Source of the DNA: an uncultured Candidatus Micrarchaeota archaeon
GTDB taxonomy: Archaea > Micrarchaeota > Micrarchaeia > Burarchaeales > Fermentimicrarchaeaceae
Length of the DNA: 64,000 nt
Assembly: GCA_963760615.1 (NCBI GenBank)
Contig: CAVXDX010000003.1
Coordinates: forward strand, 32,001-96,000
Direction of reading: 5' to 3'
Below the pieces are notes generated by a model. That model worked only from the letters and a program-made list of their open reading frames with translations, ran no database searches and had not been told where the DNA came from. Position numbers and translations under genes: made by a program. Of the stretch, positions 4,384 through 6,167 are shown in pieces. The stretch's first letter is position 1. Every line of letters starts with the position of its first letter.

Positions 4384-4794
4384 TCATCCAAGTCTCTCAA
4401 GTGGAATCAATGCGTTCTCGCAAATTTCTGAGATGTGAACTCTTCTCCTTCCGTTCCTGATGATATGTTTTGATGTCTTGGGCTTCATAAGCCTGCCGCT
4501 CAGGCCGGCCTTCAGCACTTCATCTTTTGTCATCTCCCCGCCATCCCACTTCTCAACATGTATATCTTCCGAAGTATAATCAACGAACTTCACTGCAACT
4601 TTGGAGCAGTCGAGCTTCTTCAGCGCATCGCACCTGCAGTGCCCATCCAGTATCACCATAGTGTTCCTGTCAACCACTATGGGTTTGATGAGCACCCCTC
4701 TCCTCCTCATGTCATCCTTAAGCTCTTCAACTCTGCTCTCAAGAGGCAGCTCATGAGCCCTCAGCTCAGAGAGAAGAATGATGCTGAATCTCAT
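4384..4794 (-). CDS. minimal SerK/SbnI-like free serine kinase (ParB/Srx fold)
   Basis: L--HE, KPIVV, ILDGH-R, DY---I-V-KW and TK-EV---G-----PKTSKH motifs; ATG at 4794 with a GAGGTGA RBS overlapping the trpB2 stop. Confidence 0.7.
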   Translation of the reverse strand: MRFSIILLSELRAHELPLESRVEELKDDMRRRGVLIKPIVVDRNTMVILDGHCRCDALKKLDCSKVAVKFVDYTSEDIHVEKWDGGEMTKDEVLKAGLSGRLMKPKTSKHIIRNGRRRVHISEICENALIPLERLG

Positions 4795-4799
4795 AGGCA

Positions 4800-6093
4800 T
4801 CACCTCTGGACTTCATAGCTGCTCAAGTCAAGCAGGCCGTGCCCCGAGAAGTTGAATGCAATTATCCTTTCCTCAGAGCACTTTCTTGCTTCATCTATAA
4901 CTGCCTTTATTGCATGCGCTGTCTCTGGCGCAGGCACAATACCCTCGGTTCTTACGAATATCCGCGCAGCATCAAAAACCTCTTCCTGCCCGTAGGCAAC
5001 GGAGCTTACAACTCCCTCTTTTATGAGCAGGCTGAGAGAAGGAGCCTTCCCGTGATACCTCAAACCAGCTGCATGTATCGGAGGCGGGATGAACTTGTGC
5101 CCAAGAGTATACATCTCAATGAGAGGAGTCATTTCTGCTGTATCTCCATAGTCATACCTGTACTGACCTTTGGTTGTTGATGGAACCGCGGTAGGCTCCA
5201 CGGCGAGAAACTTCGTTTCAATTTTTCCCTGCAACCTATCCCTCACAAACGGGTAGCAGAAGCCAGAGAAGTTGCTCCCACCCCCTATGCAGCCCACCAT
5301 GAGGTCAGGCACGACATCAATCTGCTTGAACTGCAGCATAGTCTCTTCCCCAATCACTGTTTGGTGGAGCAGCACATGGTTTAGAACACTTCCCAGAGAA
5401 TACTTGGTATTCTTTGATTTTAGTGTGAATTCAATCGCCTCGCTTATTGCAACCCCCAAGCTTCCAGGGTGGTCAGGCATCTCTTTTAGGCATGCCCTTC
5501 CGCTCTCAGTTATGCTACTAGGGGATGGATGCACCTTACCTCCAAAGAGTTGCATAAGCGTTTTTCTGTAAGGCTTGCTATCATAGCTGCTCCTTGTCAT
5601 GAAAACCTCGCATTCCAGACCAAATAGCATGCATGCATAGCTTAGAGCAGTGCCCCACTGCCCCGCGCCAGTCTCCGTAGCCAGCTTCTCCACCCCTTCC
5701 TTGGATGCATAATACGTCTGGGCTATTGCAGTATTCGGCTTGTGTGAGCCGCAGGGGTTGGTATCCTCCCTTTTATAGTAGATTCTCGCCTTTGTTTTCA
5801 GATATTTCTCAAGCCTCGTAGCCCTATACAGCGGTGTTGGCCTGCCCAGTCTAAGATACGCCTCCCTAACTTCCTCAGGAATCCTCACTCTCTCCTCCAT
5901 GCACATCTCCTGCCTCACTCCCTCCCTTGTGAAGATTCTCATCAGATCCTCTGGAGCTACAGGTTTCATGGTTGCAGGGTTAAGAGGCGGATTCAAAGGC
6001 CTTGGCAAAAAAGGCAGTATGTTGCAGTAATAGCGCGGCAGCTCTTCCTGCTCAAGAATCAGCTTTATCTCCCCAAAGACAATCCCTTTTCAT
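4800..6093 (-). CDS. trpB2: tryptophan synthase beta chain type 2 (TrpB2), interrupted by a +1 frame change near codon 6-7
   Basis: [11 protein letters not shown] (PLP lysine), [18 protein letters not shown] and GLRYHG motifs; conserved N-terminus [19 protein letters not shown] lies 5' of the track TTG (6008), in a frame closed by TGA at 6092-6090. Confidence 0.92.
6052..6093 (-). promoter_or_regulatory. leader [16 protein letters not shown] containing a candidate +1 shift site CUU-UGG-G (6078-6072)
   Basis: GAGGTG RBS 7 nt before ATG 6093; AGG GAT TGT CTT TGG G resembles prfB AGG GGG TAT CTT TGA C; the +1 frame is trpB2. Confidence 0.6.
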
Positions 6094-6167
6094 TTTTCAT
6101 CACCTCGCAAGTGGGAAGGATTGGAACAATACACACTTTTAAGCTTTTCTGAACAAAAATATACATT

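Follow-up and report, generated by a model that had tools for sequence, protein, structure and literature searches.

A candidate tryptophan-responsive +1 frameshift at the start of an archaeal trpB2 gene and possible counterparts in other Micrarchaeia

The element considered here lies at the 5′ end of trpB2, a gene of tryptophan (Trp) metabolism, on the minus strand of a 64,000-nucleotide (nt) stretch of DNA from an uncultured Candidatus Micrarchaeota archaeon (assembly GCA_963760615.1, contig CAVXDX010000003.1), which is called the window below and whose positions serve as coordinates throughout. Full-length TrpB2 apparently needs a start codon that is out of frame with the enzyme, followed by a forward slip of the ribosome at a Trp codon. 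That trpB2 is expressed through a programmed +1 frameshift of the prfB or Ty1 type, in which the codon in the aminoacyl (A) site of the ribosome reports the level of charged transfer RNA (tRNA) for Trp, is judged probable without being assured. Sequence comparison establishes the layout of the locus, its conservation, the translation of the N-terminal segment in the TrpB2 frame (frame 0) and a rule by which the codon at the slip site matches the amino acid that the gene product supplies, a rule that extends to cysteine (Cys) and histidine (His) genes.

The genome that contains the window (G000) is a 1.14 Mb assembly of 16 contigs, estimated at 91% completeness, and the first comparison drew on the trpB2 5′ ends of 13 close relatives collected from NCBI genomes, JGI and ENA metagenomes and Logan assemblies. 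On the minus strand, a Shine–Dalgarno (SD) sequence GAGGTG (6106-6101) and a 7-nt spacer precede ATG 6093-6091, which opens the leader ATG AAA AGG GAT TGT CTT(6078-6076) TGG(6075-6073) GGA GAT AAA GCT GAT TCT TGA(6054-6052), an open reading frame (ORF) of 13 codons. One base further on, the TrpB2 frame reads TGA(6092-6090) AAA GGG ATT GTC TTT GGG GAG ATA AAG… and its first canonical start is TTG 6008 (for 402 residues), with no earlier ATG, GTG or TTG and 28 codons without a start. These features (SD, ATG 6093, 13-codon leader, TGA closing the +1 frame, no start before 6008) were all confirmed as a preliminary description of this DNA had given them, and the product that it had derived from a CUU to UUU slip was recovered by computation, with 6 + 424 = 430 residues beginning MKRDCL-GEIKL…. 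Its remark that the SD spacing is like that of other starts is plausible, the distance from GAGGTG to the starts of long ORFs peaking genome-wide at 5–6 nt with 7 nt also found. The SD has an 8-nt match, GAGGTGAT, to the archaeal anti-SD consensus. The elements of the proposed switch are the following, all on the minus strand.

6101..6106, minus strand: Shine–Dalgarno sequence GAGGTG; GGTGAT is unvarying in the 13 relatives
6091..6093, minus strand: leader start ATG, in the −1 frame relative to trpB2, at SD + 7 nt; a start codon stands at the homologous position in 13 of 13 relatives
6090..6092, minus strand: TGA closing the TrpB2 frame, overlapping the leader ATG (ATGA)
6082..6087, minus strand: AGGGAT, a purine-rich SD-like element and possible stimulator, unvarying in 12 of 13 relatives (AGGTGGA in relative G006)
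6073..6081, minus strand: TGT CTT TGG, the codons in the exit site, the peptidyl (P) site (CUU to UUU) and the A site (UGG, Trp) at the proposed +1 slip
6052..6054, minus strand: leader stop TGA, the proposed termination point of non-shifting ribosomes; the stop position differs among clades
4800..6074, minus strand: TrpB2 body, frame 0 after the shift, from GGG 6074-6072 to the stop TGA 4802-4800, 424 codons

According to the proposed mechanism, a ribosome would bind GAGGTG, initiate at ATG 6093, which is offset from the enzyme frame by one base, and read M-K-R-D-C-L, so that peptidyl-tRNA-Leu on the P-site CUU (6078-6076) would come to wait for Trp-tRNA at UGG (6075-6073). When Trp is plentiful, UGG would be read and translation would terminate seven codons on, at TGA 6054-6052, yielding only a 13-residue peptide. 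When Trp is scarce, the A site would remain empty, the tRNA-Leu would re-pair from CUU to UUU, GGG would enter the A site, and the 430-residue protein would be made along with the coupled SerK-like protein encoded downstream. The TrpB2 product would thus close a feedback loop, as release factor 2 (RF2) does at prfB, and the purine-rich element, AGGGAT here and AGGTGGA in G006, may stimulate the slip by base-pairing to the 3′ end of 16S ribosomal RNA. The position of the slip, the tRNA involved, the stimulation by AGGGAT and the response to Trp are proposed by analogy with prfB and Ty1. CTT-T (6078-6075) is the only slip point common to all clades; two other points may allow slipping in this clade, AGG-G, which is kept in 12 of the 13 close relatives, and AAA-A, which is found in the window only.

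Among the close relatives the offset of the two frames is general, and the pattern goes well past anything expected from chance. An out-of-frame start, ATG in 11 and GTG in two, stands 6–7 nt after the SD at the homologous position in 13/13, within a spacer that exists in at least nine sequence variants with one indel, and TGT CTT TGG is unvarying in all of them. A usable in-frame start is missing in 10 of the 13; one relative has a doubtful in-frame TTG inside or ahead of the SD, and in another (L128) an ATG is directly followed by TGA. The alignment that the preliminary description had called for thus came out in favour of its reading, with no plain in-frame layout replacing the out-of-frame start and CTT TGG in any relative. 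The frame-0 codon that overlaps the start is TGA in nine relatives and TGG in four, a variation consistent with its variable base being the first base of leader codon 2 (AAA, GAA or AGA) rather than part of a translated frame-0 codon. In sister families with an ordinary trpB2, an in-frame ATG lies exactly at SD + 6 nt, and the out-of-frame start is therefore the homologue of the normal start codon.

In principle such an offset could be trivial: an A may have been added to AAAA in sequencing or assembly, TGA 6092-6090 may be read through after an upstream frame-0 start, or a −1 shift may follow initiation at ATG 6100. As far as sequence comparison reaches, these explanations are together scarcely credible. 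It is true that an A4 run sits at the critical place and that four relatives have TGG instead of TGA. However, the same offset is present in 13 assemblies, and G002, from the same genus, reads ATG AGA AGG, which breaks the run and keeps the offset. Contigs of three other public runs span 6028-6106 with zero indels and none shows AAA; these runs hold relatives rather than the source sample, the share of sampled words being at most 0.40. Genome-wide scans of G000 gave no second convincing gene with the leader layout, which indicates that frameshifts near gene starts are not widespread in the assembly. Read-through is contradicted by relatives L133 and L129, which carry TAA just upstream in frame 0, and by L055, which lacks an upstream start; the same in-frame TAA codons, with TGA as the commonest stop codon of the genome, rule out a reassignment of TGA to Trp. 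As for the −1 shift, ATG 6100 adjoins the SD with zero spacing and is missing in six relatives (L131, L133, L002, L129, L128 and L004). Transcriptional slippage was also rejected, there being no run longer than A5 or G4 and the run being broken in G002.

That the start-less codons belong to the protein is indicated by both family profiles and substitution patterns. The gene matches TrpB2 profiles over its full length (NF009057, 657.6 bits with a cut-off of 366; TIGR01415, 653 bits with a cut-off of 518.85), the canonical trpB profile TIGR00263 giving only 170 bits, under its cut-off, and the NCBIfam profile alignment begins at TrpB2 residue 8, so that the 28 start-less codons are part of the protein. 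The ratio of nonsynonymous to synonymous substitutions (dN/dS) of the whole gene is ~0.056 in the comparison with the 13 close relatives, dS reaching 1.7 relative to the window. For codons 6–40, all of which precede the first canonical start in the window, dN is 0.058 and dS 0.62, a signature of purifying selection from which their translation in frame 0 follows. An N-terminally truncated TrpB2 starting at TTG 6008 or Met 5968, or a decaying pseudogene, is accordingly very improbable: gene callers do give products of 380–402 residues throughout the window's clade, but the segment that these products omit is under strong frame-0 selection and is covered by the family profile, and the body of the gene is intact, with its low dN/dS maintained over a dS of more than 1.5.

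The arrangement is found beyond the close relatives. TrpB2 5′ ends taken from 61 genomes of the same class include two further families, f10 (G081, G138 and G078) and f15 (G156 and G144), which have the same layout at 60–66% identity, with an SD, an ATG or TTG overlapping a frame-0 stop, 4–6 codons and CTT TGG. Their leader peptides are MRGGSLWRR…, MSKSGFLWQK…, MKPGELLWR*, MKGELLWRK… and MKGESLWRK…, with AGG, GGC or GGT 4–7 nt before CTT, and the distance from TGG to the leader stop differs by clade, between 2 codons and over 40. The frame-0 codon before TTT is GTC, CAC, TTC or TAC; since the residue varies (V, H, F or Y) while the third base is always C, it is the leader-frame CTT of CTT-TGG that is conserved. 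In a quick maximum-likelihood tree, the CTT-TGG trpB2 genes fall into three distinct clades interspersed with genes that start normally, and the well-supported branches force at least three changes. Among the other archaeal and bacterial TrpB2 5′ ends that could be classified, ~110 in number, none has the leader motif.

These families also bear on the possibility of a near-cognate TrpB2 start in frame 0, at ATT 6083-6081 or ATA 6068-6066, which would make the 13-codon ORF an overlapping regulatory upstream ORF. ATT is kept in 12 of the 13 close relatives and codon 6068 is GTG in seven, where gene callers place the start, and these facts lend the idea some support; it is nevertheless improbable. 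The ATT is 17 nt from the SD, against the 5–7 nt usual in the genome, G006 has GAT in its place, and ribosomes stalled at UGG would cover ATT, giving the wrong regulatory sign. A start at codon 6068 is ruled out by GTA in the closest relative, L131. In the trpB2 of G078, no in-frame codon before the conserved region could serve as a start, be it canonical or near-cognate, and the ATT start therefore fails as a general explanation. The alternatives that the preliminary description had itself listed, ATG 6100 and an ATT or ATA start, thus do not hold. Termination at the leader stop followed by reinitiation was rejected as well, no start codon being located near the leader stops in the window, in G078 or in the Cys-gene leader of G322.

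The sensing part of the proposal draws mainly on genes of other pathways. Among 30 cysteine synthase loci of the same class, that of G114 has an SD and a leader ATG GGG TAT TTA CTT TGC AAG TAA ahead of a start-less enzyme frame, and those of G322 and G324 have GAGGTG, 5 nt and ATG … AGG TGG TTG GCC TGC; ATGA closes the enzyme frame, and the distance from AGGTGG to the P-site GCC is exactly 3 nt. In G217, hisF is preceded by the leader ATG GAA AAG GAT ATA CTT CAC AAA AAT TAG, which contains AAGGAT, and 158 codons of the ORF pass before the first in-frame canonical start. At the decision point, the codon therefore matches the amino acid made by the product in each pathway: TGG for trpB2 (three clades), TGC for cysteine synthase (two leader types) and CAC for hisF (G217). 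It is very unlikely that cognate codons came to occupy the same slot in three pathways by chance, and this is the main reason for accepting Trp sensing as the best reading. A wider proposal is that Micrarchaeia use a portable recoding cassette as a general sensor of Trp, Cys or His shortage. In this cassette an SD would be followed by an out-of-frame start and 4–6 codons with a purine-rich element, ahead of a slip codon that is mostly CUU and a single cognate codon; a shortage of the amino acid would cause a +1 shift into the matching biosynthetic or salvage gene. This generalization is only slightly favoured.

Other unusual starts were seen in the same pathways. In the his operons of G356 (L259) and G166 (L260), His-ended mini-ORFs, MNVQLGRHH* and MHENFHH*, overlap the starts of a hisH-like and a hisB-like gene, respectively; in-frame starts are also present. 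The cysteine synthase of G022:C2 (L232, 7600-8490) has no canonical start after the upstream stop, and an upstream ORF enters it for ~12 codons in the −1 frame and ends CCT TGA, an arrangement that may be another case of recoding or coupling.

Even if a +1 shift is needed, it might be constitutive, a ‘savior’ shift that offsets an old 1-nt insertion and does not respond to Trp. An ancestral x-V-F-G N-terminus could have contained the site by chance, and the site could then have rescued an upstream frameshift mutation; corrective frameshifting has been described as a class (PMC5009743). This explanation is considered unlikely, for three reasons. First, the same A-site rule holds for UGG at trpB2, UGC at cysteine synthase (with two P-site codons) and CAC at hisF. 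Second, three TrpB2 clades have gained or retained the layout. Third, codon choice at the site is fixed. In the alignment of the 13 relatives, where TGTCTTTGG is the third longest invariant run, 290 codons have an invariant residue and 33 are invariant as codons, 7 of them within the first 19 codons, including GTC and TTT. Both are minor codons in the genome (GTC 18%; TTT 38%, TTC being preferred at 62%) yet do not vary. TTC would still permit the CUU slip but would destroy UGG, and the fixation of TTT in 13/13 relatives therefore counts for a role of UGG and against a constitutive shift.

Several observations weigh against a Trp-sensing frameshift and keep confidence in it limited. Some genes have alternatives to the shift: G003 is the only close relative with a well-placed in-frame ATG (ATG TGG AAA GGG), G006 has a more distant in-frame GTG, at 13 nt from the SD, and in both G006 and G138 an in-frame GTG precedes TTT by 2–3 codons, so that the shift may not be obligatory in these three genomes. 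Part of the conservation may be ordinary, because UGG in the leader frame follows automatically from a frame-0 TTT-GGN and because 5′ coding regions are often under extra constraint. The spacing of the SD-like element is another discrepancy. AGGGAT ends 3 nt before CTT, its AGG core 6 nt and AGGG 5 nt before, so that the likeness to prfB announced in the preliminary description stands for the CUU-T slip site and is weaker for the SD-like spacing (AGG at 5–6 nt, against 3 nt in prfB). The decoding components are incompletely represented. ARAGORN and Rfam found ~38 tRNA genes in G000, many of them intron-bearing and none for isoleucine, and neither tRNA-Trp nor tRNA-Leu(GAG) was found in this incomplete (91%) assembly; the only readers of CUN codons found were tRNA-Leu UAG and CAG, so that the tRNA-Leu(GAG) named in the preliminary description for bacterial prfB has no counterpart among the tRNAs found. 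A 93-nt tRNA (C8:81446-81538) called with the 4-base anticodon ‘aatt’ is probably a gene with an intron or a misplaced intron rather than a quadruplet decoder. In addition, CTT-TGG pairs in the coding regions of G000 (41 observed, ~74–80 expected) are not specifically avoided beyond a general avoidance of NNT-TGG pairs (observed/expected 0.67). Finally, the His version is not general, hisA and hisF having ordinary starts in all of 29 genomes of the window's order and a class-wide search of hisF giving a clear case only in G217. Since G000 likewise offers no second case, the cassette is sporadic, not universal.

The proposed switch combines traits of several known systems. It shares with prfB (AGG GGG UAU CUU UGA C) an early shift after a short zero-frame ORF, a P-site CUU that re-pairs on UUU, an upstream purine-rich SD-like element, a functional protein encoded almost wholly in the new frame and a sensor–effector logic; details of the prfB +1 frameshift are given, in part, in PMC5009743. 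The two differ in that a stop codon in the A site of prfB reads RF2 whereas the sense codon UGG of the trpB2 leader would read charged tRNA-Trp, and in that prfB is bacterial and its product is the decoding factor itself, trpB2 being archaeal and its product an enzyme. With Ty1 (CUU AGG C; also Ty3), the leader has in common a P-site CUU and a ‘hungry’ sense codon in the A site. The tRNA that slips in Ty1 is tRNA-Leu(UAG), one of the CUN readers found in G000. Unlike in the trpB2 proposal, the tRNA for the hungry codon of Ty1 is always rare, which sets a ratio of products and has no tie to the metabolic product of the gene. The slip of peptidyl-tRNA-Leu in Ty1 needs no downstream structure (PMC5009743).

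Attenuation leaders (trpL, hisL and pheL) resemble the trpB2 leader as short ORFs that contain codons of their own pathway and in which the speed of the ribosome reports charged tRNA. They act, however, through RNA hairpins and transcription termination and usually carry tandem cognate codons, whereas the trpB2 leader has a single cognate codon at the slip site and its output would be a reading frame. In E. coli, the lack of one aminoacyl-tRNA provokes single-base shifts at its ‘hungry’ codon (PMC5009743), and frameshifting upon Trp depletion in human cells is described in PMC13751296; by contrast with the present proposal, these starvation-induced shifts are adventitious errors. For functional trans-frame proteins specific to starvation, a 2016 review stated that ‘no examples are known’ (PMC5009743). 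In archaea, the fucA1 gene of Saccharolobus solfataricus undergoes a −1 frameshift at A-AAA-AAT in mid-gene (PMC8211752); it resembles trpB2 as a cellular archaeal gene that needs recoding for its full product and differs by the −1 direction, the mid-gene position and the lack of a known sensing role. The demonstrated cases in a review of archaeal recoding comprise one −1 shift and no cellular +1 shift (PMC8211752), and no description of such a switch was found in the literature on frameshifting in DPANN archaea and Micrarchaeota or on a TrpB2 frameshift.

If the cassette proposal is correct, it would provide the first natural case in which hungry-codon frameshifting serves regulation. It would also be the first programmed +1 shift known for a cellular gene of archaea, and it would take over the function of attenuation. 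Known regulatory frameshifts respond to release factor 2 (prfB) and to polyamines (antizyme); control by an amino acid through its own codon is not known, and how archaea tune amino-acid pathways to the levels of charged tRNAs is poorly understood. A cassette of 20–30 nt that works with neither a protein nor an RNA structure would suit genome-reduced symbionts. There is also a practical aspect, as gene callers cut such genes by 30–50 residues or pick arbitrary starts, so that inventories of DPANN pathways are affected.

Folding of the 13 sequences with RNAalifold gave no conserved or covarying RNA structure. A hairpin present in the window only disappears in relatives with GTG at 6068, and a classical transcription attenuator was rejected because conserved terminator or anti-terminator hairpins were lacking in the same analysis. 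A possible sequestration of the SD by pairing of GCGAGGUG, at the SD, with UGCCGCGC received no support from covariation. A further conserved stretch lies within the coding region.

6033..6044, minus strand: GAGCTGCCGCGC, coding for Glu-Leu-Pro-Arg and the longest stretch of the gene without nucleotide variation in the 13 close relatives

Of 37 Leu, 28 Pro and 13 Arg codons in the gene, one of each kind is invariant, and all three lie in this run, whose conservation does not extend to families f10 and f15. An imperfect pairing of the run with GCGAGGUG at the SD can be drawn but lacks covariation support.

From its family membership, the TrpB2 of the window would condense indole with serine or O-phosphoserine to form Trp. 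The protein itself contains little Trp (1 in 429 residues, versus ~1% genome-wide). TrpE and IGPS were not found in the 91% complete genome, and family matches to TrpA and TrpD are partial and lie within other proteins. Because TrpB2 is the only enzyme of the trp pathway found in the genome, it probably salvages indole. A TrpB2 match is absent in 3 of 5 genomes of the same genus (G001, G004 and G005; 91–96% complete), which indicates variable presence within the genus. Two other features flank the gene.

4384..4803, minus strand: SerK-like ORF of 139 codons, whose GTG overlaps the trpB2 stop (GTGA)
6137..6142, minus strand: TATA-like box TTAAAA, unvarying in 13/13 close relatives, within a 74-nt divergent intergenic region

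The match of the 139-codon ORF to the archaeal serine kinase SerK is partial (47.6 bits over residues 8–86, far under the cut-off of 380), and an ORF of 136–154 residues is kept downstream of trpB2 in most contigs of the relatives. It is probably translationally coupled to trpB2 and thereby under the same switch. At the other end, the TTAAAA box would, judging by its position, set the transcript start just 5′ of the SD. The 74-nt spacer between the trpB2 leader and a divergent gene on the plus strand (ATG 6168) is highly conserved and contains two TATA-like boxes. The divergent plus-strand gene looks leaderless, its ATG lying ~23 nt after the TTTTAAGC box (region 6137-6167).

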